Shown in pieces: positions 28,970 through 53,021 of a stretch of 64,000 bases of DNA. Position 1 is the first letter of the stretch; every line of letters begins with the position of its first letter. The translations under genes and the position numbers were made by a program. The stretch lies in the NCBI GenBank assembly GCA_021814165.1, contig JAKAIX010000002.1, positions 5,371-69,370 of the forward strand, read 5' to 3'. The DNA is from a bacterium (GTDB lineage: Bacteria; Patescibacteriota; Minisyncoccia; UBA6257; GWB1-50-10). The notes beneath the pieces are model-generated. The model saw nothing but the letters and a program-made list of their open reading frames with translations, ran no database searches and was not told the origin of the DNA.

Positions 28970-29064
28970 AATTACCAATTTTTCAATTTCCAATGATCAA
29001 TTAATTTTAAAATCGTTCAATTGAATTATTCATTGAAAATTGGAAATTGGTCATTGAAAATTTA
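28970..29064. repeat. intergenic inverted heptad-array element, copy A
   Basis: Left arm ttttcaatttccaatgatcaatt; AT-rich spacer; right arm cattgaaaattggaaattggtcattgaaaat; fills the whole stop-to-start gap. Confidence 0.8.
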
Positions 29065-30420
29065 TATCTCTTTCTTTTGCTTTTGTTCTCTGACTTCGAT
29101 AAACAGATAGGTGGCAAACCCAAGGAACAAAAATACGTTCAGATAGATCGGCAGCACGTCAAAAAGCGCGACTCCCTGCCCCAGATATCCCATGGGAATT
29201 GCGAGGAGGAGCGCAACGAAGAGATAACCATACGGATGAAGATGCGCGACGATGCTCCGCCGATGCTTCACCAGCTGCGAGAAAAACACCACAAAGATTC
29301 CCAGAAAGCTCAGGAGCCCCAAAATGCCCGTCTCCGCGAGATAATCAAAATACACGCTGTGCGCTCTATCAAACCACGTCTCGGAATGCTGGTCCGGAAC
29401 GAAGTGCCGCGTGTCGAGATATTTGTCAAAAACGACGCCGAAGTTTTCCGGCCCCCATCCCAAAAGCGGGCGTTCTTCCCAGCCCTTTATCGCCGACCCC
29501 CACGTCCAAAGACGGGTCTGCGCGGTTTTATCCGAGGTCGATACGTCAAGGAGACGGCTTGAGGATTCGCAGAAAGGGACGAGCGGAATACTCTCGTGAC
29601 GGAACGTGAAAGCGAGCGCCGCGAATACGATGCAGATCCCGGCGAGCGCAACCGAAATTTTCTTCCCTTTCCCTTGGGGAAGCGCAAACGCGAGATAAAG
29701 GAGCGCCGCGATAATACCGAGGCCGAACCCCAAGAGCGCGCCGCGCGTTTGAGAAAGAAGGAAAAATAACAAAAGGACGACAAGAAGCGCGGCGAAGAAC
29801 ACGTTTCTTTTCCCGTTCGATTTTTTTGAAAACCACAGCCACGACGCGTAAAACATCATGAACATAAGGTAGGGCGCAAGGTACGCCGGATTGCCGAACG
29901 ATCCGGCAATCCGGTCGCAAAATCCCGCGGGACCGATGAACGAGTTGATTCCGAGCGACGCGGCAATCCCGTAAAGAATCACCAACCCCGATGCGGCGAG
30001 CGAGAGCGTAAAAACCCATTTCCATTCCGCTCTGCTGCGAAACAGAAGCAACAAGAGCAGGAAGAAAACGTAGAAATGGAGCATCTGAAGCCCCCCGTCA
30101 CCGCGCTCGAAGTTCGACCAGAATGCCGCACCCGAGTCATAGGCGAAAAGCGACGCAAGAAGGAATACCAGCACGAAAGCGGAGACCGCAATAAACAGCG
30201 GGTGGCGGAATATCTGTTTTGCGCGCACCTTGAGCGTCTCCCACTCTCCCTTTGAAAAAATAACTCCCAGAAGGAATGAAATAAGCGCGAGATCGACGAT
30301 ACCGCGGAAGAACACGTACTTCCCCACCACAAAGGGGAAGAGCGTCGAGTTGGTAACGAGCGCAACACAGAATACGGAGATATAGAGAAGAATGCGAGAG
30401 AGTTTGAAGTAGTTAAACAT
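29062..30420 (-). CDS. Wzy_C / O-antigen-ligase-family polytopic membrane protein (PglL-like O-oligosaccharyltransferase candidate)
   Basis: 452 aa, about 10 to 12 TM helices, typical O-antigen ligase domain architecture. Confidence 0.55.
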   Translation of the reverse strand: MFNYFKLSRILLYISVFCVALVTNSTLFPFVVGKYVFFRGIVDLALISFLLGVIFSKGEWETLKVRAKQIFRHPLFIAVSAFVLVFLLASLFAYDSGAAFWSNFERGDGGLQMLHFYVFFLLLLLLFRSRAEWKWVFTLSLAASGLVILYGIAASLGINSFIGPAGFCDRIAGSFGNPAYLAPYLMFMMFYASWLWFSKKSNGKRNVFFAALLVVLLLFFLLSQTRGALLGFGLGIIAALLYLAFALPQGKGKKISVALAGICIVFAALAFTFRHESIPLVPFCESSSRLLDVSTSDKTAQTRLWTWGSAIKGWEERPLLGWGPENFGVVFDKYLDTRHFVPDQHSETWFDRAHSVYFDYLAETGILGLLSFLGIFVVFFSQLVKHRRSIVAHLHPYGYLFVALLLAIPMGYLGQGVALFDVLPIYLNVFLFLGFATYLFIEVREQKQKKEI

Positions 30421-30423
30421 AAC

Positions 30424-30532
30424 AGTGAATTATCAATTTTCAATTTCCAATGATCAATTGATTTTAAAATTATTTAATTGAATCATTTATCGAAAATTGG
30501 AAATTGGCCATTGAAAATTTATACTCCTTTCC
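30424..30532. repeat. intergenic inverted heptad-array element, copy B
   Basis: caattttcaatttccaatgatcaattg ... cgaaaattggaaattggccattgaaaat; between a stop (30541) and a start (30420). Confidence 0.8.
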
Positions 30533-30540
30533 ATTATACC

Positions 30541-33051
30541 CTACTTCACGGGCGTTATCTCTATCTTCGGCGTTCCCAAACCCGAAGAAGACGGAGCGGG
30601 GAGTTTGATTCCAAGTCCGTTGAATACCGGTTCGAGTTGCGACCAGATCGGGACTGTCCTGAAATCGATTTTTGTCGAGAGTCTTTCGAACTCGACCTTC
30701 GCCTCGGGATACTTCCCCCAGAGATAGTACGCAACCGCGATTTTCAAATTGATTTCGTTCTCCTGTAAAACGCTGGGCCTCATCTTCAACGCCCACGCAT
30801 AGTAACGGATTGCCGACTCATAGTCCTGTTTCTCATCCCCCATGATATCCCCGAGAGTCGTCGCTTCCGCTATGGTGCGCGGCTTACGATTGAGTTCCAA
30901 CGCTTTCCCTATTTCCCTGTCTCCCGTCGGAACGTCATGGAGCTGGTACGCAATGATTCCCAGATAGAAGTGTGGGTCTCCCGCCGACGGGTTCAAGTCA
31001 ACGGCAACCTTAAGCGCGTCGTAGGCGCTTTTCAAATCGCCTTCGAGAACCTTGGTCTTTCCGATTATATAGTACACCTGCTGGCGGTTCGGACTCAGCT
31101 CGAGAGCCTTTTTCTCCAACGCCTCCGCGTCTTTCAGGTAGCCCGCATCGAATTCATAAAACGTGTTTTTAAAGTCCGCGAGCGTGGCATAAAAAAGATA
31201 ATTCCGAGGATGATGATCAATCACTTTTTGCAGCTCCCCCTCAACGCGTTTCTGCAGGTTTGCGACATCGGGGTATTCGACCTGGCTCTCATACGCTCCT
31301 TTCACCACGTTTGCGAACGTAAGCCGGATATCGTCACGGTACGGGGTTCCCGCTGCAAGCGCCTCGTTCAGCGCCGAAACCGATTCCGCAGGAAGTTTGT
31401 TGAGATAATAATTGGGGCCCCAGTACTCACGGCCGGCGGCATACACCATGGGCCAGTTGAGAAAGAAAATCGGGATAAGCGAAACGACGAGAGCGGGGTA
31501 GGCGAACGGAACACGGGATGACGACGAACGCTCGCCGCCATGGGGAGGTCCGGCCTCCTCACGATCGGAGGCCGGGCCTCCTAATATTGCGTTCGGCGAT
31601 CCCTTATAGCGAACATCTATATAGGCTAAGACGAGAAAAAACATAAGATAGGTGCCGATCGTATCGAAGATGACGAGGTTTTGGATAAAATACGCGGCGA
31701 GCATGCCGAAGAATATGATTTTCGGGATACTCCCCTCCCTCGATCTTTTCAGTTCGTAGAGAAGAAGAGCCCATATTCCGAGATACGCAAGAAGTCCCAC
31801 TATGCCGCTTGTTATTGCGTACTCGATAAGCACGTTGTGCGGCTTGTCCCAATACGTCTCGCCGAAATTATTGGAAAGCAGTGCCGGATCATAATGTCTC
31901 TGGAATGCGAGGTTGAAATTTTCCCACCCGAATCCGAATACCGGATGTACAGAGAACGATTGCGCAGCGCTTCGCCACGCGATTATTCTGTTTTCAAATT
32001 CGCTCCGCACCGTCGTGAAGCTTTGGATACGATCAAATCCTGGTACCTGCATCCAAAATGAAGCGCTCCGCGTAAAATAAAAGACGCCGCCGAATGCAAT
32101 CACTATTATAAGAATCCAAAGCCAGACATTTTTAAAAATGAGAAAACTCTGCCTCCCGCCGGAAAAACGTGAAGGATCGGCCTCCAAGCGCGAGGAGGCC
32201 GAGCCTCCTGATTTTGCGTTTGTGCGCTGATAGCGGATAGCGAGAAGAAAAATAATAATGAAGAGACCGACTATAAGACCTCCTATATCTCCTCTTGTCT
32301 CGGTTTTAAAAATAGCAAACGCATCAACGAGAGCGATTATGAGGGCAAGCCACGGCATGACGCGGGCGACACCACGGAGGCCCGGCCTCCGCGAGTAGGA
32401 GGCCGGGCCTCCCAATTCCGCGGAACTCCTAGTTTCATACCAAACATATATCCCCAGGAAGACGTGAAAAAGGAGATAACCGGCGAGGAACGTGGGGTTA
32501 CCGAACGAAGATCCCGGGCGCGGATCATCCTGTCGCAGGAAAAATTGTCCGATATCGGGAAGGAAGGTAAGAAGCGCGCCAAGCGCGGAGAACAAACTCG
32601 CCACCAAGCTCGCAAACCAGACATTCTTCCATTTGAGCTCATCTCCGAGGGAAGAGAGAGCGACGAAGAAGAGTGTAAAAATCCAGAGTGCAACAATGCC
32701 GATGGTACGCACCTCTTGCGACCATAAACTCATCATGAGATCCTCCCCAAAAAACGCGGAGATAGTGAGTACGAGCATAAAGACGACAACACCGATAGTG
32801 AGGGGGGTGAAACGAGGACTAAAACGGCGACGGTCAAAGCGAGGAGACTCGGCTTCCTTACTGAGGCCGAGTCTCCTGCCGAGGACGAGCGCGACCCAGA
32901 GGAAGATAATGATTCCCGCGAGCGACTGGAAAATAGCGCTCTTTACGACGATGAAAGGATTCATCGTCCACTTCCAGAAAAAGAGGGGGACAAGTATCAC
33001 CATCGCGTAGAGGCAGCCGCGGATAATCTTCAAAACGGAGTTTTCGGACAT
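30541..33051 (-). CDS. Wzy_C/O-antigen-ligase-like polytopic membrane domain fused to C-terminal TPR repeats
   Basis: 836 aa. The N-terminal ~480 aa are multi-TM; the C-terminal ~300 aa are TPR (ALELSPNRQQVYYIIGKT..., LKMRPSVLQENE...). Carries four in-frame GC-rich palindromic inserts. Confidence 0.6.
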   Translation of the reverse strand: MSENSVLKIIRGCLYAMVILVPLFFWKWTMNPFIVVKSAIFQSLAGIIIFLWVALVLGRRLGLSKEAESPRFDRRRFSPRFTPLTIGVVVFMLVLTISAFFGEDLMMSLWSQEVRTIGIVALWIFTLFFVALSSLGDELKWKNVWFASLVASLFSALGALLTFLPDIGQFFLRQDDPRPGSSFGNPTFLAGYLLFHVFLGIYVWYETRSSAELGGPASYSRRPGLRGVARVMPWLALIIALVDAFAIFKTETRGDIGGLIVGLFIIIFLLAIRYQRTNAKSGGSASSRLEADPSRFSGGRQSFLIFKNVWLWILIIVIAFGGVFYFTRSASFWMQVPGFDRIQSFTTVRSEFENRIIAWRSAAQSFSVHPVFGFGWENFNLAFQRHYDPALLSNNFGETYWDKPHNVLIEYAITSGIVGLLAYLGIWALLLYELKRSREGSIPKIIFFGMLAAYFIQNLVIFDTIGTYLMFFLVLAYIDVRYKGSPNAILGGPASDREEAGPPHGGERSSSSRVPFAYPALVVSLIPIFFLNWPMVYAAGREYWGPNYYLNKLPAESVSALNEALAAGTPYRDDIRLTFANVVKGAYESQVEYPDVANLQKRVEGELQKVIDHHPRNYLFYATLADFKNTFYEFDAGYLKDAEALEKKALELSPNRQQVYYIIGKTKVLEGDLKSAYDALKVAVDLNPSAGDPHFYLGIIAYQLHDVPTGDREIGKALELNRKPRTIAEATTLGDIMGDEKQDYESAIRYYAWALKMRPSVLQENEINLKIAVAYYLWGKYPEAKVEFERLSTKIDFRTVPIWSQLEPVFNGLGIKLPAPSSSGLGTPKIEITPVK
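31544..31581. repeat. in-frame GC-rich palindrome doublet, insert 1
   Basis: ggaggtccggcctcc-N8-ggaggccgggcctcc inside the CDS; encodes GGPASDREEAGPP. Confidence 0.8.
32172..32208. repeat. in-frame GC-rich palindrome doublet, insert 2 (first half degenerate)
   Basis: ggatcggcctcc-N8-ggaggccgagcctcc, followed by a tgattttgcg flank similar to insert 1. Confidence 0.7.
32376..32412. repeat. in-frame GC-rich palindrome doublet, insert 3
   Basis: ggaggcccggcctcc-N7-ggaggccgggcctcc; encodes GGPASYSRRPGLR. Confidence 0.8.
32843..32877. repeat. in-frame palindrome, insert 4 (variant)
   Basis: ggagactcggc-N13-gccgagtctcc. Confidence 0.6.
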
Positions 33052-33120: not shown

Positions 33121-33150
33121 CAAAAAAACAACCCGCCGGAAAGGCGGGTT
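33121..33150 (-). terminator. rho-independent terminator of the surface-protein gene
   Basis: cccgcc-ggaaa-ggcggg stem-loop followed on the minus strand by TTGTTTTTTTG. Confidence 0.8.
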
Positions 33151-33174: not shown

Positions 33175-36100
33175 CTAGTTGGTGTAGGTGACGTGTGCGA
33201 GGTTGAGCGGGACGCTGACGTCGCTTGAAAGATTCAAGCCGTTCGCCGTCGAGCCGCTAACTGCGCCATCGCCCCAGTTGACATCCGATGCAGCATTCAT
33301 GGTCACGTCGAGTGACTGACCAAGGTTCGCCGAGACATAGAAGTTCGACGAATCAACCTTGAGCGCGATACCCTTCGTGGAACCCGACGAAATCGGGGTT
33401 CCCGTAAAGGCAAAGCTTACGCTACAAGAGTTGCCGGTCGGGCTGCAGGACTGCGGGTTCGTCGCTCCATCATAAGCCGATCCGGTTGAAGGATCGATAA
33501 GGCTCACGTTGAAGGAACTTGCCGTCGAGAGCGCGCCGCCGACGAATCGGAGTGACAAGGTGTTTACCTTGATTTCCTGACCCGAAGCATCCGCGCTAAG
33601 TTTCACGCACGCGACATAGTCGGTCGTGGTTCTCGAGCGAGCAGTCGTGGAACCGCCAGTGTAGCTGCCGCACGTGCTGTCGGAGCCCAAAGAGGTTCCG
33701 GCAAGCGAGAGCTTGCTTCTCAACGTTGTAAGCGTCGCGAAGGACGGCGTGCCCGTTACCGTCACCGAAGTGTTGGAGGACTTGCCGTACGCAACTACGC
33801 TCGAGGTCGCCGAAATCGCGATCGAGGTGGTCGCATTTTCAATGCTGCCACCGCCGACCACGAAGGGCGCCGCGTTACCGCGGAGTTCCACCGAGAGCGT
33901 TCCGGCCTGCGGCACCAACATAGAGGCGCTGTTGCCGAAGTTGAAGTCAGCTACGAAGGACGGAGCCGCGCTCGTCATCGAGATCGGACCCGCGCCCGCA
34001 ATAGCCGCTCCGCTCGCGTCATAGAGCTGCAGGTTCGTGAATGCAGCGCCAACCGAGGATCCGGTGTTCAAGTTAAACTTGAGCTCCTGGATTCTGATCG
34101 GTTCGATACCCGCCGTGTCAGTCAAGAGGATCTTCGCCAAGCTTACGCCCGTCGAACCCAAGACAACCTGGCGCGAAGCGCCGGAGTTGTTGTTTGAGAT
34201 CGTGAGCGAAGGACCTGTCGATACCGTGATGTTCTGACCGGTCGGAGTACCGCTGCAGGAGACGGACGTATTCGTCGTCTGACCCGTTCCCGTGCAGGAT
34301 ACGAACGAAGTGAGCGTTCCCATGTCGCCGGTGTTCGTGGTCAAGATATCCGCATAGATATCAACAACCGCCGTACCTCCCACGGGGACCGTGAAGGTGC
34401 CCGCGAAAGTATGATTGCCGGACGAGATGGTCGAGATCGCCGAACCGATGACCGTCGAACCAACCATCGCCTTGAGGTTCTGGAAGTTCGAGGACGAAGC
34501 GTTCGTCGAAACCGTGAAGTTCGAGATGTTCACGCCTTCAGCCGAGGATGCGGTAAAGACGTACGAACCGACTTTCGTCGCCGGTGCGCCTTTCGCATAC
34601 GTCTGGCTCGCAAACGCGCCGTTCTTCGTCACCGTAAGAGGTGTCGTCGAAAGCGTGAGTGCGGAACCGGTCGCCGAACCGCTCGAGCTCGTCTGGCTTG
34701 AAGTCAAGCCCTGCAAGTTCGAGGAGTTGCCCGGCAGGCTGGCAGTCACCGTCGTGAAGTCAGCACCCGTCTGAACATCGCCTCTCACGGAAATCGTGCG
34801 AGTCGTGTTTGCGGGGATGACATATACGATCGGCGAGCCGCTCGTACCGAAGTGACACGTTACCGTGCCTCCCGCTACGAAGGAACAACCGCCGCTGTTC
34901 GCCGAACTGGTATTGCCAGTCGTCGAAATCGTGGTGCCGATCTGGTTGCCCTGATCGTCAACCAAGCGGAGGTTTTGCAGGTCGGAATCGAACGCAGTGG
35001 ACGAATTCGTCCAGTTGTGTGTTCCACCCGTCTTCACTAAGTTCACATCCAAGAACTTCACTTTTACGGCCTCACCCGCCGCGTATACGTCAAATTTCGC
35101 GAGGGTTGTTCCCGCACCACCCAAGGCAATATTGCCGGTCGGGGTGTTCGTGTTGACGGAGGTCGTGATCTGTCCCTGGTTGATCGTTACCTGTACGCCG
35201 GAACCGCCGTTTACGGTCACCGAGACAGGAACGTTGTACTGCGTGTCTACCGCGTAGATGTCATACGAGTTCAGAACTTCGAACTGGAAGTTGAAGCTCG
35301 GGGAACCCGTTACGTCCGCGTAGACCTGGATGTTGTTCGATCCGGTCTGAAGTTTTACCGGAGCCGACGAGAAGTCGAAGTATCCCGAGCCGTCCGCAGT
35401 AACAGAAGCCAAGGTGGCTCCCGCCTGCTTTCCGTTCACGAGCATCTTCACGTTCTTCAGGTCGGTCTTCAGCGCGGAACCAACCACCTTGAAGTTGATC
35501 GAGGTGAGGTTTACCGGGCTGTTGCTCACCGTCGCGGTCCACTGCGATACGAGGACACCGTTCGTGCCCGCATACACCGTGGTACCCACGGACGATGACG
35601 CAAGCGTCACGGACGCGATCGAAGGATTCGAGACGCTCGTCACCGTGAAAACGTTGCCGTTCATCGGGAAGGTCGCCGAAGCCGTGACCGCCGCGCCGGT
35701 CGCATCAGTCGCACTTACATCGCTTGCTCCGGTCATTGCAAACGCAATCGTGTTACCGGCGGAGAGATTCACCGCAGGATCGATCGAAAGCGTAAGGTTT
35801 ACGGTCTGACCGGCCGCAATGTTCAAAGCGATTCCGGAGAATTCAATCACGCCGCTGTTCACGGACGTGTATTGATACAATACCTTGCCGTTTTGGACGA
35901 GGTATGCACCGGAGATCGCCGAATCAGCTACTACGCCTGTCTTGTGGAATTTGAGATTCGTGACAGTAACGCCGCTCGCGGTGCCAGCCGTCAAATTGAA
36001 GGCCATTACCGGAACGCGAGCCGCCGCTGAATTGGTGCTCGAAATTAACGCACCCGCCGCAGGATTATTGGAAGCAAGGCTTACCGCCAATCCGGATGCA

Positions 36101-36627
36101 GGAGCGGGAACCGACGGGGTGGAAGGAGTGCCCGGCGTCGACGGAGTCGACGGGGTTCCTACACTCACCGCGTTTACGCTTTCTCTGGTCTTAGGACCAA
36201 AGTACCCGACCGCGGGGGAGATTCCCTTCGCTGCCTGGTATTTTGCGAGAGCCGCCTTGGTCGCGGGGCCGAAGTATTCGGTTTCATTCCCCTTTGATCC
36301 GGCGCCGCTCGTCGCAACGGCGTAGCCGCTGCTATTCAAGAACTGCTGCAACGCCTTCACGTCCGTCCCCTTGCTTCCAAGGGTGAGGTCCTTAGAAAAA
36401 GTGTAAGACGAGCCGGAAGAGCCCGCAGTTCCCAATTGAGCCTGCAAAGCACTGATCTGCGCCAAAAGCTGGGCGATCTGCGCCTGCAGTTCCGCTGTAG
36501 TCGCCGCGGAGGCCGTGATCACTGAACCGGCAAACCATGCAACGGTCGCGACCGAAAGGCCTACTGCAACGACTTTTCGACTTAAATTACTCATTGTGTT
36601 GATAATTTCTGAAGAACACCGATCCAT
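33175..36627 (-). CDS. giant secreted/cell-surface protein: N-terminal signal/TM anchor, coiled-coil (AQLLAQISALQAQL), peptidoglycan-binding (PG_binding_1-like) domain, then about 950 aa of Ser/Thr/Gly/Ala/Val-rich beta-repeat (Ig-like) region
   Basis: 1150 aa. LGSKGTDVKALQQFLNSSGYAVA...GPATKAALAKYQAAKGI matches PG-binding domain signatures. The rest is low-complexity T/S/G-rich, consistent with an S-layer or pilus-like and O-glycosylation substrate. Confidence 0.6.
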   Translation of the reverse strand: MDRCSSEIINTMSNLSRKVVAVGLSVATVAWFAGSVITASAATTAELQAQIAQLLAQISALQAQLGTAGSSGSSYTFSKDLTLGSKGTDVKALQQFLNSSGYAVATSGAGSKGNETEYFGPATKAALAKYQAAKGISPAVGYFGPKTRESVNAVSVGTPSTPSTPGTPSTPSVPAPASGLAVSLASNNPAAGALISSTNSAAARVPVMAFNLTAGTASGVTVTNLKFHKTGVVADSAISGAYLVQNGKVLYQYTSVNSGVIEFSGIALNIAAGQTVNLTLSIDPAVNLSAGNTIAFAMTGASDVSATDATGAAVTASATFPMNGNVFTVTSVSNPSIASVTLASSSVGTTVYAGTNGVLVSQWTATVSNSPVNLTSINFKVVGSALKTDLKNVKMLVNGKQAGATLASVTADGSGYFDFSSAPVKLQTGSNNIQVYADVTGSPSFNFQFEVLNSYDIYAVDTQYNVPVSVTVNGGSGVQVTINQGQITTSVNTNTPTGNIALGGAGTTLAKFDVYAAGEAVKVKFLDVNLVKTGGTHNWTNSSTAFDSDLQNLRLVDDQGNQIGTTISTTGNTSSANSGGCSFVAGGTVTCHFGTSGSPIVYVIPANTTRTISVRGDVQTGADFTTVTASLPGNSSNLQGLTSSQTSSSGSATGSALTLSTTPLTVTKNGAFASQTYAKGAPATKVGSYVFTASSAEGVNISNFTVSTNASSSNFQNLKAMVGSTVIGSAISTISSGNHTFAGTFTVPVGGTAVVDIYADILTTNTGDMGTLTSFVSCTGTGQTTNTSVSCSGTPTGQNITVSTGPSLTISNNNSGASRQVVLGSTGVSLAKILLTDTAGIEPIRIQELKFNLNTGSSVGAAFTNLQLYDASGAAIAGAGPISMTSAAPSFVADFNFGNSASMLVPQAGTLSVELRGNAAPFVVGGGSIENATTSIAISATSSVVAYGKSSNTSVTVTGTPSFATLTTLRSKLSLAGTSLGSDSTCGSYTGGSTTARSRTTTDYVACVKLSADASGQEIKVNTLSLRFVGGALSTASSFNVSLIDPSTGSAYDGATNPQSCSPTGNSCSVSFAFTGTPISSGSTKGIALKVDSSNFYVSANLGQSLDVTMNAASDVNWGDGAVSGSTANGLNLSSDVSVPLNLAHVTYTN

Positions 36628-40663: not shown

Positions 40664-40760
40664 ACGAGAATTTTCAATTTCCGATTATCAATTTTCAGGA
40701 CTTGTTTTGAAAATTGGTTTATTGGAAATTCACTGAAAATTGGAAATTGATAATTGAAAA
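40664..40760. repeat. intergenic inverted heptad-array element, copy C
   Basis: ttttcaatttccgattatcaatttt ... cactgaaaattggaaattgataattgaaaat; abuts the clpB start codon (12 nt upstream). Confidence 0.8.
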
Positions 40761-43046: not shown

Positions 43047-43146
43047 TAACATTTCGAATTTTCAATTTCCAATGGTCAATATTCAATCAATTTTTTAATT
43101 TGAGAATTTCAAAATTCACTGAAAATTGGAAATTGATAATCGAAAA
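43047..43146. repeat. intergenic inverted heptad-array element, copy D
   Basis: aattttcaatttccaatggtcaatatt ... cactgaaaattggaaattgataatcgaaaat; ends at the stop of the cysteine desulfurase gene. Confidence 0.8.
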
Positions 43147-44670
43147 TTACTCTCCGAGCAATTTTTTTATTCTCCTCACCGCCTCCCTTATTTCCTGTCT
43201 CGTTGTCGGCACACCGAAGCTAAACCGTATGCTCCCGCGGATGCGTTCCGACGGAAGTCCCAACGCCTCAAGCACGTGGGAGGGAACGAACGAGCGAGCG
43301 CTGCACGCCGAACCCGAGGATGCGGCGATGCCCGCCATGTCCATCTTCACCAAGAGATCTCCGGCAAACTCCGTCGGGAAATAGGCGTTTATGATGTGCG
43401 GTGCCATAATTCCTGATTCCTTATTCCCGATTCTTAATTCATTATCACCGTTCATCGATGCCTGCGGATATATTTTTTTCAACTCTCTCCAGAAGTAGTT
43501 CCTGACCTCCGTCACTTGCTTTGCGTGTTTCGCGCGTCCCTTCTCCGCGAGCATGGCCGCATTCCCGAATCCTACAATCGCGGGAACATTTTCCGTTCCC
43601 GAACGGAACCCAAATTCCTGGCCGCCCCCCGTCACGAATGGAATTAGGAATTTTGAATTATGAATTATGGCTCCGTCACGTTTCACCCCTAATTCCTTAT
43701 TCCTAATTCCTGATTCCTGTCCCTTTATTCCTGATTCTTGATTCTTAACGAAGAGCGCGCCCGCTCCCTTCGGGCCGTAGATCTTCTGGGAGGATAACGT
43801 CATGAGGTCAACGCCGAGCCGTCCCACGTCGCACTTGAAATATTCGAACGCCTGGGCGGCATCCACATGCAGGAGCGGATATGCCTCTCCTGCAAATCCA
43901 AAATCCAAATGACCAATGTAAAATGGACGAATCGTCGGCTGATGTGCTTTTAACATTGTGCTTTCAGCTATTGATTTGGCATTCAGCGTTTGAAATTTGG
44001 CATTTCTAAAATTTCTGATGACTTCAGAAATTTTAGAAATTGGCTGTACGCTCCCTATCTCGTTATTCACGTACATAACGGACACGAGCACTGTCCGTTC
44101 ATCAAGCATCGTTTCGAGTTTTTTCAAATCAACAATTCCCCTCTTATCGACGGGAAGTACCGCAACTTCCACGCCGTCCTTCTCGAGGGCGTACGCGGTA
44201 TCCAGCACCGACTCGTGTTCAATCGCCGAGACGATAACCTTTGGACGAAAGCCACGAGTTATACTTCCCTTCCGTCGCCCCCCTAATTCCTTATTCCCTG
44301 CCTGCCTGCGCAGGCAGGCCTGCGCAGGCAGGTTTATTCCTGACTCCCGTCCTCTTATTCCTGATTCCCATTCCCTGGTTCCGAAAACAACACCGCGGAG
44401 TGCGAGGTTGTTTGCCTCGGTTGCGCCCGAGGTGAATATTACTTCACGAAATTCCGCATGGATCGCTTTCGCGATCGTCTCCCGTGCGGCATCGATCGCC
44501 GCAATCGCCTCCTGTCCGAATGAATGCAATGATCCGGGGTTCCCGAATGTATCCGAGAAGTACGGTTCCATCACGCGCTTTACTTCCCGCAGAACGGGCG
44601 TGGAGGCGGCGTAATCTAAATAAATCTTCAGAGATTGTTTCTTCATTTTTTCGTTACCCTTAGACACCAA
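43147..44670 (-). CDS. cysteine desulfurase (class V aminotransferase, NifS/IscS-like) carrying four in-frame insertions
   Basis: DYAASTP, SGATEANN, SSQKIYGPKG (PLP Lys) and SSGSACS (catalytic Cys loop) are all conserved. At 507 aa it is about 110 aa longer than typical, because of palindromic DNA inserts. Confidence 0.8.
   Translation of the reverse strand: MVSKGNEKMKKQSLKIYLDYAASTPVLREVKRVMEPYFSDTFGNPGSLHSFGQEAIAAIDAARETIAKAIHAEFREVIFTSGATEANNLALRGVVFGTREWESGIRGRESGINLPAQACLRRQAGNKELGGRRKGSITRGFRPKVIVSAIEHESVLDTAYALEKDGVEVAVLPVDKRGIVDLKKLETMLDERTVLVSVMYVNNEIGSVQPISKISEVIRNFRNAKFQTLNAKSIAESTMLKAHQPTIRPFYIGHLDFGFAGEAYPLLHVDAAQAFEYFKCDVGRLGVDLMTLSSQKIYGPKGAGALFVKNQESGIKGQESGIRNKELGVKRDGAIIHNSKFLIPFVTGGGQEFGFRSGTENVPAIVGFGNAAMLAEKGRAKHAKQVTEVRNYFWRELKKIYPQASMNGDNELRIGNKESGIMAPHIINAYFPTEFAGDLLVKMDMAGIAASSGSACSARSFVPSHVLEALGLPSERIRGSIRFSFGVPTTRQEIREAVRRIKKLLGE
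44297..44332. repeat. perfect GC palindrome inside the cysteine desulfurase CDS
   Basis: cctgcctgcctgcgcaggcaggcctgcgcaggcagg; translated in frame as LPAQACLRRQAG. Confidence 0.8.
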
Positions 44671-45334: not shown

Positions 45335-45431
45335 TAATGCTCAATTTCCAATGATCAATTTTCAATCAATTTTTTAATTCGAAAATTTTAAAATCGACTG
45401 AAAATCGGAAATTGATAATTGAAAATTCTCG
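45335..45431. repeat. intergenic inverted heptad-array element, copy E
   Basis: ctcaatttccaatgatcaattttcaat ... gactgaaaatcggaaattgataattgaaaat; contains a palindromic ATTATAAT box 9 nt upstream of the mgtC-like ATG. Confidence 0.8.
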
Positions 45432-50891: not shown

Positions 50892-51656
50892 ATGTCCGAC
50901 ATTTTTATTTACACACTTCTCTCGGGAATCTTCGTTGCCGCCGCCTCGGGGCTCATCGGGTCGTTTCTGGTTCTCCGCCGAATGACGCTCATGAGCGACG
51001 CGTTGTCCCACGTTGCGCTTCCCGGAATCGCTCTTGGCGTGGTGCTCCATTTCGAACCGATTCTGGGCGGCGTTTTGGCGCTCTTTCTGGGAATTATTAT
51101 CATCTGGCTTATTGAGACGAAAACAAAACTCGCGACCGAGTCCGTGACCGGCGTGCTTTTTGTGACGGCCCTTGCAATAGGATCGCTCCTTATTCCCGAA
51201 GCGGATCTTCTTGAGGCGTTTTTCGGAAGCGTGCAGCGCATCACGCTCCCCGAGATTATTATCCAAACCATAATTGCGATCGCGGTTGTAGCCGTCGTCT
51301 TTACATTCAAAAAACGCATCACGCTTTTCTCGATTGCGCCCGATTTGAGCGTATCGCTCAAATCCTCACCGGCGGTCACGCAATTATTACTCCTCGCGCT
51401 TATCGCGCTCACCATCGCGATAGGCATCAGTTTCGTGGGCGTACTTTTAATAAGCGCGCTTTCCATTATCCCCGCCGCGGCCGCGCGCAATCTCGCGAAA
51501 AGTTTCAACGGATTTGTGGCGGCGAGCATCGCGATCGCAATCGTTTCTCTCCTGGGAGGACTCCTCGTCGGGAATATGTATTCCCTGAATCCCGGCATTA
51601 TGACGGTCTTGATAAGCGCCGCCTGTTTCGCACTGAGCTTATTCAAGAGGAGATAA
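50892..51656 (+). CDS. ABC-3 family metal transporter permease, ZnuB-like
   Basis: 254 aa, about 8 TM helices, immediately downstream of the ZnuC-like gene; no SBP gene in the operon. Confidence 0.8.
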   Translation: MSDIFIYTLLSGIFVAAASGLIGSFLVLRRMTLMSDALSHVALPGIALGVVLHFEPILGGVLALFLGIIIIWLIETKTKLATESVTGVLFVTALAIGSLLIPEADLLEAFFGSVQRITLPEIIIQTIIAIAVVAVVFTFKKRITLFSIAPDLSVSLKSSPAVTQLLLLALIALTIAIGISFVGVLLISALSIIPAAAARNLAKSFNGFVAASIAIAIVSLLGGLLVGNMYSLNPGIMTVLISAACFALSLFKRR

Positions 51657-51719: not shown

Positions 51720-51755
51720 GCCTCAAAATGCGCGCATATGCGCGCATTTTGAGGC
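51720..51755. terminator. perfect 18-bp-arm palindrome between convergent znuB-like and gdh genes (bidirectional terminator candidate)
   Basis: gcctcaaaatgcgcgcat|atgcgcgcattttgaggc. Confidence 0.6.
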
Positions 51756-51788: not shown

Positions 51789-53021
51789 TTATGAATTATT
51801 CTTCAGCGCCTCGACTACTTTCGAAACGCCGACAGCGTACGCGGCCATTCTGAAACTCACGGAATTTTCCTTTTTATAGGAATAGATCGCATCGAACGCG
51901 GAATCTATCTTTTTTTTGAGTTCGGAGAACGTCTTCTCTTTCGTCCATTGTTCTCTATGCATGTTTTGATACCACTCGAAATACGAAACGGTAACGCCAC
52001 CGGAGTTTGCAAGCACATCCGGGATCACCACAACTCCCTCCCTCTCAAGTACGGCATCCGCTTCGTCCGTTACGGGGCCGTTCGCCATTTCGAGTATATA
52101 CTTCGCCCTGATAGTTTCCGCATTCTCCGACGTAATTACGTTCTCGGTTGCCGCGGGAATAAGTACGTCGACGGGAAGCGCAAGAAGCTCATTGTTTGAA
52201 ATCACCGTTGCGCCCGGCATTCCCTCAAACGATCCGTGCGACTTCTTGAACTCCACTGCGGTATCAATATCGATTCCTTGATCATTTTTGATTGCGTGTC
52301 TCGAATCGGCGATCGCGATCACGCGGTAGCCGGCGTCATGCGCGTAGCGCGCGATATAATATCCCACATTCCCTATCCCCTGCACCGCAACCTTCGTCTG
52401 TTTCGGATCGAGGCGTTCCCGCTCCGCGAGGTTCTGAAGCACGTAAAATCCGCCGAGGCCCGTCGCTTCCGTTCTTCCTTCTATTCCCCCTTTTTCGATC
52501 GGCTTCGCGGTAATCATCGCGGGAGTGTATTCTCCGACAATCTTCGCATACTCGTCCGCCATCCATCCCATCATCTCCGGAGTTGTATACATATCCGGCG
52601 CCGGAACGTCCTTGTCGGGCCCCACGATTGCGTGAATCGCGCGGATATAGGCGCGGGAAATTCCTTCGAGTTCCGCGGAAGAACACTGCTTCGTATCGAC
52701 AATTACGCCTCCTTTTCCTCCGCCGAACGGAATGTCCGCGATCGAACATTTCCACGTCATCCACATCGAGAGCGCGCGAATCTCCGACTGATTCACGAAC
52801 GGACTGAAACGAATACCTCCCTTATAGGGGCCCCGCGCATTCGAGTGCTGTGCACGATATCCGGTAAACATCCGCACCGCGCCGTTATCCATCGTGACGG
52901 GAAAATGTACCTCGAGAAATTTGTCATGCACCGAAAGCCGCTCGACGACATCGGCGGGGAGTTTCAGGATTTCCGCAATCTTCTTCAATTGTGCGACGCT
53001 CGTTACGTACGGATCATTCAT
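51789..53021 (-). CDS. gdhA: Glu/Leu/Phe/Val-family (glutamate) dehydrogenase
   Basis: IPFGGGKGGV catalytic Lys motif and GIGNVG NAD motif; 410 aa. Confidence 0.9.
   Translation of the reverse strand: MNDPYVTSVAQLKKIAEILKLPADVVERLSVHDKFLEVHFPVTMDNGAVRMFTGYRAQHSNARGPYKGGIRFSPFVNQSEIRALSMWMTWKCSIADIPFGGGKGGVIVDTKQCSSAELEGISRAYIRAIHAIVGPDKDVPAPDMYTTPEMMGWMADEYAKIVGEYTPAMITAKPIEKGGIEGRTEATGLGGFYVLQNLAERERLDPKQTKVAVQGIGNVGYYIARYAHDAGYRVIAIADSRHAIKNDQGIDIDTAVEFKKSHGSFEGMPGATVISNNELLALPVDVLIPAATENVITSENAETIRAKYILEMANGPVTDEADAVLEREGVVVIPDVLANSGGVTVSYFEWYQNMHREQWTKEKTFSELKKKIDSAFDAIYSYKKENSVSFRMAAYAVGVSKVVEALKNNS

Follow-up and report, generated by a model that had tools for sequence, protein, structure and literature searches.

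Intragenic dimers of repetitive extragenic palindromic (REP) sequences of the GTAG/CGTC type encode 20-30 residues, sometimes occur twice in one open reading frame (ORF), and are found in uvrD-type genes among others (PMC3733652). The Rickettsia palindromic elements (RPEs) RPE-4 and RPE-6 are included in the account of intragenic REPs (Di Nocera et al. 2013, PMC3733652), and RPE-1-type elements are reported to be longer palindromic insertions (PMC3733652). Here we analyzed a 64-kb stretch of a contig from a bacterium of the candidate phyla radiation (CPR; Patescibacteria), hereafter the window, in which one gene for an O-antigen ligase-like (Wzy_C) membrane protein with C-terminal tetratricopeptide repeats (TPRs) carries four GC-rich hairpin inserts built on the motif GGAGGCC. 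We consider it likely that each insert is a copy of a short REP-like palindromic repeat, non-autonomous and resident in the genomes of one Parcubacteria clade. Intragenic REP-like behavior has already been described; what is new is the family and its host clade. The features concerned are as follows.

30541..33051, minus strand: host gene, Wzy_C (O-antigen ligase-like) membrane domain and C-terminal TPR (from the ORF, Pfam PF04932, and the AlphaFold2 (AF2) model)
31544-31581, in the host gene (minus strand): site A, inverted repeat, plus-strand sequence GGAGGTCCGGCCTCC-tcacgatc-GGAGGCCGGGCCTCC
31582..31591, in the host gene (minus strand): shared flank next to site A, TAATATTGCG (sense strand CGCAATATTA), a direct-repeat family in the window
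32171-32208 (core; 32164..32215 with its extension), in the host gene (minus strand): site B, inverted repeat, plus-strand sequence GAAGGATCGGCCTCC-aagcgcga-GGAGGCCGAGCCTCC
32376-32412, in the host gene (minus strand): site C, perfect 15-bp inverted repeat (100% complementary), plus-strand sequence GGAGGCCCGGCCTCC-gcgagta-GGAGGCCGGGCCTCC
32842-32877, in the host gene (minus strand): site D, inverted repeat, plus-strand sequence AGGAGACTCGGCTTC-cttact-GAGGCCGAGTCTCCT

The host ORF encodes 836 aa, with the Pfam Wzy_C domain followed by TPR repeats, and its AF2 model (mean pLDDT, 80.2) has 13 transmembrane (TM) helices before the TPR repeats. Public assemblies yielded 15 contigs with the identical protein, among them contigs of two Logan runs and of one NCBI genome, the Patescibacteria metagenome-assembled genome GCA_027423885.1 (contig DAIBYO010000002.1). 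The original prediction, made from the window sequence alone, that this gene contains four palindromic inserts was correct, and the reading frame is kept at each of them. Site A encodes GGPASDREEAGPP (residues ~491-503) in the TM12-TM13 loop; its arms form 14 Watson-Crick pairs and one G-T pair, with a folding energy of -31.9 kcal/mol on the sense strand and -37.2 kcal/mol on the antisense strand. Site B, the core of which is lengthened by A-run/T-run pairing, encodes GGSASSRLEADP in the TM8-TM9 loop, and site C encodes GGPASYSRRPGLR in the TM6-TM7 loop, with a folding energy of -38.3 kcal/mol. Site D encodes RRLGLSKEAESP in the TM2-TM3 loop, and its arms are not palindromic, yet they are mutually complementary (13 Watson-Crick pairs and one G-T pair). 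All four sites fold as 15-bp hairpins on both strands (-28 to -39 kcal/mol; z-scores, -3.6 to -7.4), in which a Shine-Dalgarno-like GGAGG in the arms is paired to CCUCC.

Within the window, a search with the 15-mer allowing ≤2 mismatches gave 10 strand-hits at 5 places, every one in the host gene, compared with a mean of 0.10 hits in shuffled sequences, confirming that the rest of the 64 kb is free of copies, as had been noticed. At 3 mismatches, the sole match outside the host gene (19280) was at chance level, and a hairpin scan of the window (stems ≥11 bp) detected no further GGAGGCC-family member outside this gene. The similar flank that had been reported for three of the inserts was found after sites A, B (32209-32218), and C (32413-32422), with the common pattern YRATTYYGCG; a CAATATTA flank also precedes an unlinked intergenic copy in a relative's genome (L045 138). 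This recurrent flank is either a part of the element or the mark of an AT-rich target preference. A terminator-like T-run was present, on both strands, at site B alone, sites A, C, and D having none, and the element does not show the layout of an intrinsic terminator, in which a U-run comes immediately after a GC-rich hairpin. The window's ordinary terminators have sequences unrelated to the GGAGGCC hairpins. Rfam, which is not a repeat library, contained no family covering the hairpins and gave only sub-threshold matches, at the ordinary terminator near 33125.

Models of the repeat unit were compared on an alignment (A4) of 24 copies from the window and related genomes. When arm 1 was paired with arm 2 as one long hairpin, 93.6% of the cells were paired and 6 of the 15 pairs showed compensatory changes (15 cells), a covariation equalled by 0-1 of 500 shuffles; because the copies are akin and the structure was derived from the same copies, these counts are supportive and carry no formal probability. 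The two-palindrome model paired 89.9% of the cells with no compensatory pair, a result equalled by all 500 shuffles. The bases at the arm centers are complementary across the arms (C/G, G/C, and, in L026, A/T) and therefore fit the long hairpin only, not two palindromes. In addition, site D and its orthologous copy in the P0002 gene described below (GGAGGCCCGGCCTCC-gcaa-GGAAGCCGGGCCTCC) differ by two compensatory double changes, GGAGGCCCGGC/GCCGGGCCTCC to GGAGACTCGGC/GCCGAGTCTCC. Since the site D arms are non-palindromic yet pair with each other, these comparisons indicate that the unit is one inverted repeat of 34-38 nt, whose arms of 15 bp (consensus GGAGGCCNGGCCTCC) enclose a spacer of 4-9 nt, rather than paired independent palindromes. 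The earlier description of 15-nt perfect palindromes thus holds for three of the eight arms (31567-81, 32376-90, and 32398-412), and it fails for the degenerate first arm of site B, for the arms of site D, and for the unit as a whole. The unit often bears an AT-rich flank, and the mismatch that recurs in its stem reads C.A in the mRNA and G.T in the antisense strand. No stop codon interrupts the arms in any of the six frames, where they read GG[PRLQ]AS, RPGL, and EA[RGW]P, and whole elements are open in 4-6 of the 6 frames.

Three other identities were considered for the element. A pair of independent palindromic protein-binding sites was ruled out by the zero intra-arm covariation, an internal translation start from GGAGG and the ATG at site A was ruled out because this ATG is out of frame, and a DNA-uptake sequence was ruled out because the element is far too rare.

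According to the AF2 model, the four sites lie in unstructured, low-confidence loops (residues 61-82, 214-226, 284-299, and 486-510). The pLDDT was <50 throughout residues 486-510 (site A) and 284-299 (site B), and within 61-82 only at residues 70-72. The topology was counted by helix parity outward from the large loop at residues 331-405, which carries the WDKPHN motif; this loop of the Wzy_C/WaaL catalytic domain is periplasmic. The count places all four insert loops on the predicted cytoplasmic side and the TPR domain outside, and such a location argues against variable surface loops.

In an alignment of 18 orthologues of the Wzy_C/TPR protein (A1), the four segments aligned to gaps in every orthologue at ≤48% identity. 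The closest orthologues, P0002 (64%) and P0003 (62%), had homologous segments at sites A and C, and P0002 had one at site D as well; in their DNA the copies were still recognizable, those at A and C being degenerate and the P0002 copy at D almost perfect. Site B was found only in the window gene, being absent from both P0002 and P0003, and site D was empty in P0003 and all more distant orthologues. The alignment thus bears out the expectation that the inserts would prove to be lineage-specific additions to the protein, with the same segments absent from the distant orthologues. The inserts do not all appear recent, three of the four being common to orthologues of only 62-64% identity. The P0002 gene also has a near-identical copy 264 nt upstream of site D, in its intergenic leader. 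In P0004 and P0005 (58-59% identity), the same loops hold unrelated repeats, namely AATCAGCGG-type tandem units and GTCATCCTGA...TCAGGATGAC hairpins; since unrelated repeats occupy them, the loops are generally permissive and repeatedly filled.

Two of these orthologous loci contain further repeats. The leader of the P0002 orthologue (L004 9867-9907) has an unrelated palindrome with a 19-bp stem, CCTCCCACTGCACTCCTCAgcTTGAGGAGTGCAGTGGGAGG, between an ordinary terminator and the intergenic GGAGGCC copy. In the P0004 genome (L007 9891-13060), the AATCAGCGG-type repeats form ~45-nt tandem units, with NQRQSASNQRSSVME encoded three times; they cluster in the orthologous Wzy_C/TPR gene and also flank an adjacent small PDDEXK_3 gene, with a 23S_rRNA_IVP gene nearby, and the other ~18 kb of the locus is without them.

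An exact-pattern scan for full doublets was performed on one genome per species (GTDB representatives). Full doublets were detected in several CPR genomes within long ORFs and in frame, and the following copies were found.

L011, a Parcubacteria genome: P-type ATPase gene, one copy in frame
L028, the same Parcubacteria genome as L011: RNase HII gene, one copy in frame, the two copies being 34/35 identical
L026, Uhrbacteria: UvrD-like helicase gene, one copy in frame
L016, a genome related to the window's clade: tsaD, two copies in frame
L010, Saccharibacteria: probably intergenic copy with an A-run/hairpin/T-run layout

In tsaD, in-frame copies were also present in L044 (two) and L047 (one). 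When aligned to solved structures, the hairpin-coded residues fell opposite gaps in T. maritima TsaD, at both sites, and in RNase HII. Of the two tsaD copies in L016, the first (2096-2132) is 36/37 identical to site C, including the 7-nt loop, and is inverted relative to its host gene, and the second is of the site D subtype (GNNA loop and GGAAGCC second arm). The TsaD orthologues P0100 and P0101 were followed into two further genomes; P0100 comes from the same sample as P0003, and the genomes of P0100 and P0101 are probably those of P0003 and P0002, respectively. Outside genes, six intergenic copies lie directly 3' of genes in ~80 kb of two relatives (L004 9912, L044 9147, L045 138 and 1562, and L047 5592 and 17974), with two pairs of them at orthologous positions in the two species, and the copy density in the relatives' loci is about one per 5-7 kb. 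Since copies occur in unrelated genes and between genes in relatives, the family appears to be dispersed and REP-like, its copies lying for the most part outside genes, on their 3' side, and some persisting in frame within genes. The original prediction of a new intragenic palindromic-element family therefore stands in part: the elements do form a repeated family in a new host clade, but they also occur between genes, and their kind is known from intragenic REP dimers (PMC3733652). The likeness to RPEs that it pointed out was apt in concept, copies being found in frame in unrelated genes of CPR genomes.

No match was found when viral contigs were scanned for the element, and a search with the element peptides (concatenated translations) against a 5.8-billion-protein set gave nothing at E ≤ 10. 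Tblastx of the CPR loci against the window revealed no genes in common, hence no filled-versus-empty comparison within the window. In full-text literature searches, neither the GGAGGCC family nor any in-frame palindromic insert in CPR was found described.

In the orthologous tsaD hairpin, the loop has opposite orientations in L016 (2111-2117, GCGAGTA) and L044 (1286-1292, CACTCGT, roughly the reverse complement), a flip without re-insertion such as recombination between the arms of a hairpin would produce. Across the TsaD orthologues (alignment A3, P0099-P0209; L016, L044, and L047), three or four loops contain unrelated repeat-derived peptides that vary by lineage (for example, ELGIRNKGSLIHNSKFLIP, NFQIN..., IRVNPSSYPRKSV, NYQRQSAKDQRKS, and LKLKNSDIDLKLKIKNLKL), and the protein lengths range from 334 to 559 aa. 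From these alignments, in-frame repeat colonization of housekeeping genes looks general in the related Parcubacteria.

The best explanation for the intragenic copies is that they are tolerated loop extensions of a selfish or weakly functional repeat. Copies downstream of genes, the classic REP position, would probably act as 3' hairpins, and the stop-free arms would encode small flexible G/P/A/S/R/E/L peptides. If a copy landed in a tolerant loop and its net length was a multiple of three, the stop-free arms would leave the gene intact, and the copy could persist as a loop extension of 10-13 residues. The net insert lengths relative to the empty orthologues are multiples of three near the hairpin length, which is what selection for frame-preserving events would leave. 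The preserved frame and the absence of stop codons suggest that the inserts are translated. The Wzy_C/TPR protein may have collected four copies by virtue of several long, disordered cytoplasmic inter-TM loops that would tolerate additions. The hairpin itself might be kept by selection on a DNA- or RNA-level role, or by intra-hairpin template switching and conversion from other copies. Spread would most likely proceed via a single-strand hairpin-recognizing enzyme or local gene conversion, by analogy with REPs and the REP-associated tyrosine transposases (RAYTs); we infer both this mode of spread and the neutrality of the inserts. That paralogous copies are near-identical across genomes, when orthologous ones have decayed, points to concerted evolution or to new insertion where old copies stood.

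Several observations weigh against a dispersed mobile repeat. The window has no intergenic copy, compared with about one per 5-7 kb in the relatives, and four copies in one gene with none in the other 61.5 kb represent more clustering than random transposition and selection easily give. This clustering, the flank common to A, B, and C, and the P0002 copy 264 nt upstream of site D are unexplained by simple transposition and suggest local spread or gene conversion. No transposase (Y1/RAYT PF01797-type or other) was seen in the Pfam lists of the fetched loci, which represent a small part of each genome, and the 24 copies have no direct repeat consistently beside them; orthologues with empty sites are, even at their closest, too divergent for a target-site duplication to be defined. 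Perfect doublets are also rare in public data: the 27 genome loci are mostly unrelated GC-rich terminators, those in GC-rich Actinobacteria and others being mostly unrelated hairpins, and the 6 JGI metagenome loci come mostly from organisms already among the genome matches. Furthermore, several copies hold their position between species, so that they are old and perhaps kept for function rather than actively mobile, and the compensatory changes could reflect structural selection and not selfish persistence.

A broader reading, which we regard as unlikely, goes further: in-frame loop colonization by several selfish hairpin families would be general and ongoing in this CPR clade, GGAGGCC being one of many, and retained hairpins would in addition be co-opted as pause or coupling signals at cytoplasmic loops. 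Two observations bear on this proposal: in the TsaD alignment, the same three loops hold repeat-derived inserts of at least four unrelated kinds, and another repeat family is present in the cysteine-desulfurase-like gene of the window.

We likewise consider unlikely the proposal that selection in the host gene maintains the hairpins as functional RNA or DNA structures, serving in pausing for membrane insertion, as attenuator coupling checkpoints, or in RNase processing or mRNA stabilization. The compensatory changes that keep the stem, the very high stability (-28 to -39 kcal/mol), and the conserved positions between species are consistent with such a role, as are the predicted location of all four sites in cytoplasmic loops right after TM helices and the pairing of the Shine-Dalgarno-like GGAGG to CCUCC. 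However, the element also resides in intergenic DNA and in the genes of the cytosolic proteins TsaD and RNase HII; P0002 and P0003 have kept the gene even though their copies orthologous to sites A and C have degenerated, and the hairpins are wholly absent from orthologues at ≤48% identity. The A-run/hairpin/T-run layout of site B is terminator-like on both strands, but the T-run is limited to this site, and the recurrent C.A mismatch on the mRNA strand does not favor an mRNA structure.

A mechanistic variant of the dispersed-repeat reading, to which we assign a still smaller chance, is that one founder gave rise to the copies locally, through gene conversion within the gene, template switching, or illegitimate recombination, and not through four transpositions. 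Sites A, B, and C share their 10-nt flank in the same orientation, which is what local copying might leave, but a CAATATTA flank stands at an unlinked intergenic copy elsewhere, and the flank may be part of the element or a target preference. The near-identical P0002 copy 264 nt upstream of site D and the two copies in tsaD also speak for a local process, whereas site D is of another subtype (GNNA loop and GGAAGCC arm) than A, B, and C, and the two tsaD copies likewise are of two subtypes. Other repeats behave similarly: in P0004 a different repeat is concentrated in the Wzy_C/TPR gene and its immediate flanks, and four copies of a private repeat lie in a cysteine-desulfurase-like gene of the window.

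The original prediction had also raised a locus-specific mechanism generating variable, surface-exposed loops of a cell-envelope protein. Such a mechanism might be read into four inserts in one envelope-glycan gene and loops that differ between orthologues, but it is largely refuted and very improbable: helix parity puts all four loops on the predicted cytoplasmic side, opposite the periplasmic WDKPHN loop, the element occurs in unrelated genes and intergenic DNA, no diversity-generating machinery was seen in the neighborhood, and the protein is identical on its 15 public contigs. Finally, a chance, compositional, or assembly artifact, or an ancestral duplicated peptide motif (GGPAS...), is refuted and has next to no probability, since against the recurrence of peptides such as GGPAS and RPGL and the origin of the sequence from a metagenome-assembled genome stand the 10 observed hits versus 0.1 in shuffles, the identical protein on 15 public contigs including an NCBI genome and two Logan runs, DNA-level conservation that includes pairing and compensatory changes and spans three different reading frames, and the absence of the segments from distant orthologues.

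The host gene lies within a large envelope-glycan cluster (window 1-30500 and 33175-36627), with almost every gene on the minus strand. Among its members are many sugar epimerases/dehydratases, methyltransferases, and glycosyltransferases, NeuB, a second Wzy_C gene (29062..30420), and a 1150-aa PG_binding_1 surface protein. A hairpin with a 13-bp stem, CCGGATTGCCGAAcgaTCCGGCAATCCGG, overlaps the conserved GSFGNP motif of the neighboring Wzy_C gene at 29886-29914 and may be due to chance. Elsewhere in the window, a 507-aa class-V aminotransferase/cysteine-desulfurase-like gene (43147-44670, minus strand) exceeds the usual length by ~110 aa and has several in-frame repeat inserts of other families, making it the second window gene with private repeats. 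It contains four GGAATCAGG-type units found only in this gene, with the peptides ESGIRGRESGI, NQESGIKGQESGIRNKELG, GNKESGI, and IIHNSKFLIP, as well as a 32-nt GC palindrome at 44301-44332 (CCTGCCTGCGCAGGCagGCCTGCGCAGGCAGG) and a 39-nt AT-rich palindrome at 44002-44040. Another family, AT-rich inverted repeats of up to ~90 nt (CAATTTCCAAT ... ATTGGAAATTG), occupies five intergenic sites between minus-strand genes:

28984-29049, 30428-30519, 40675-40749, 43063-43135, and 45342-45414, intergenic: AT-rich inverted-repeat family

These repeats have no relation to the GGAGGCC family; a link to promoters or terminators is possible. A perfect 36-nt palindrome, GCCTCAAAATGCGCGCATATGCGCGCATTTTGAGGC, at 51720-51755 looks like a bidirectional terminator between the convergent genes 50892..51656 (plus strand) and 51789..53021 (minus strand). 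In L044 (3131-5353), a leucyl-tRNA-synthetase-like gene was called as two ORFs (522 and 214 aa), and its relative in L047 (11197-13446) is one 749-aa ORF; the junction consists of a stop and then a restart, with no GGAGGCC element, and could represent a frameshift, an assembly error, or a split gene.

The genomes of CPR/Patescibacteria are tiny and gene-dense, and their repeat content has been little reported. The present results suggest that streamlined genomes too harbor REP-like selfish DNA, with tolerant protein loops as a refuge, in parallel to Rickettsia. In CPR annotation and homology modeling, G/P/A/S/R-rich loop segments should accordingly be treated as repeat-derived insertions and not as functional motifs, and the elements might be used as lineage markers. 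Should the hairpins be functional in genes, they would provide a natural test case of coding sequence constrained by nucleic-acid structure. The many unrelated repeat families in the same loops of housekeeping proteins across the CPR clade may merit systematic study.

How the element relates to known systems can be considered from the more distant ones inward. In yeast mitochondria, mobile GC clusters are GC-rich repeats embedded in protein genes. The coding palindromes of Nematomorpha mitochondria encode conserved protein regions, not added loops (PMC6649704). Both organellar systems resemble the GGAGGCC element in having GC-rich or perfect inverted repeats in frame in small genomes, where hairpin and coding constraints act together, but neither is related to it in sequence. 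With respect to transposable elements of the miniature inverted-repeat type (MITEs), the whole GGAGGCC element is an inverted repeat, and its recurring flank is AT-rich and on one side only. REPINs (REP doublets forming hairpins) are roughly 70-110 nt long, extragenic, and linked to a single-copy RAYT gene. Like the present element, they comprise two inverted units with a short spacer as one hairpin-forming unit, the long hairpin being kept by compensatory evolution, whereas the GGAGGCC element is 34-38 nt long and also lies within genes.

Within the RPE-1 to RPE-10 series, RPE-1-type elements have a length of ~100-150 bp, and the GGAGGCC elements (34-48 nt) are shorter and belong to a different host phylum; it is size and host, not a consensus alignment, that set them apart. 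As with RPEs, the GGAGGCC inserts are in frame, leave the ORF intact, and are absent from orthologues; RPEs are tolerated in surface loops of the folded protein and are also found in non-coding DNA. The translation of RPE-bearing proteins has been shown experimentally, whereas that of the GGAGGCC inserts is presumed. REPs are likewise short palindromic units (20-40-bp stem-loops, often dimers), mostly head-to-head dimers that fold into a larger hairpin, and the GGAGGCC element has 15-nt units in inverted dimers of 34-38 nt. Most REP copies are just downstream of genes, as those of the GGAGGCC family may be (six such copies in ~80 kb of the relatives, none in the 64-kb window), some copies in both cases are in frame in ORFs, and families are species- or clade-specific; intragenic REPs, too, encode 10-30 extra residues, sometimes two per ORF, and a UvrD-type helicase is also hit. 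Unlike REPs, the GGAGGCC element has no conserved GTAG/CGTC tag at the unit end, GTAG preceding the arm only in C-type copies (gcgaGTAGgagg) and ATCG, CGAG, TTAC, TAAC, AATG, or GACG elsewhere. Its arms are themselves palindromic (perfectly so in 3/8 in the host gene), and the Pfam lists of the fetched loci of GGAGGCC genomes showed no RAYT. The host is a member of the CPR/Parcubacteria with a reduced genome of ~1 Mb, and four copies are in a single gene. Because neither the tag nor a RAYT was seen, we do not place the family in the GTAG/CGTC super-families; in its manner of working, the GGAGGCC element is like an intragenic REP or RPE.

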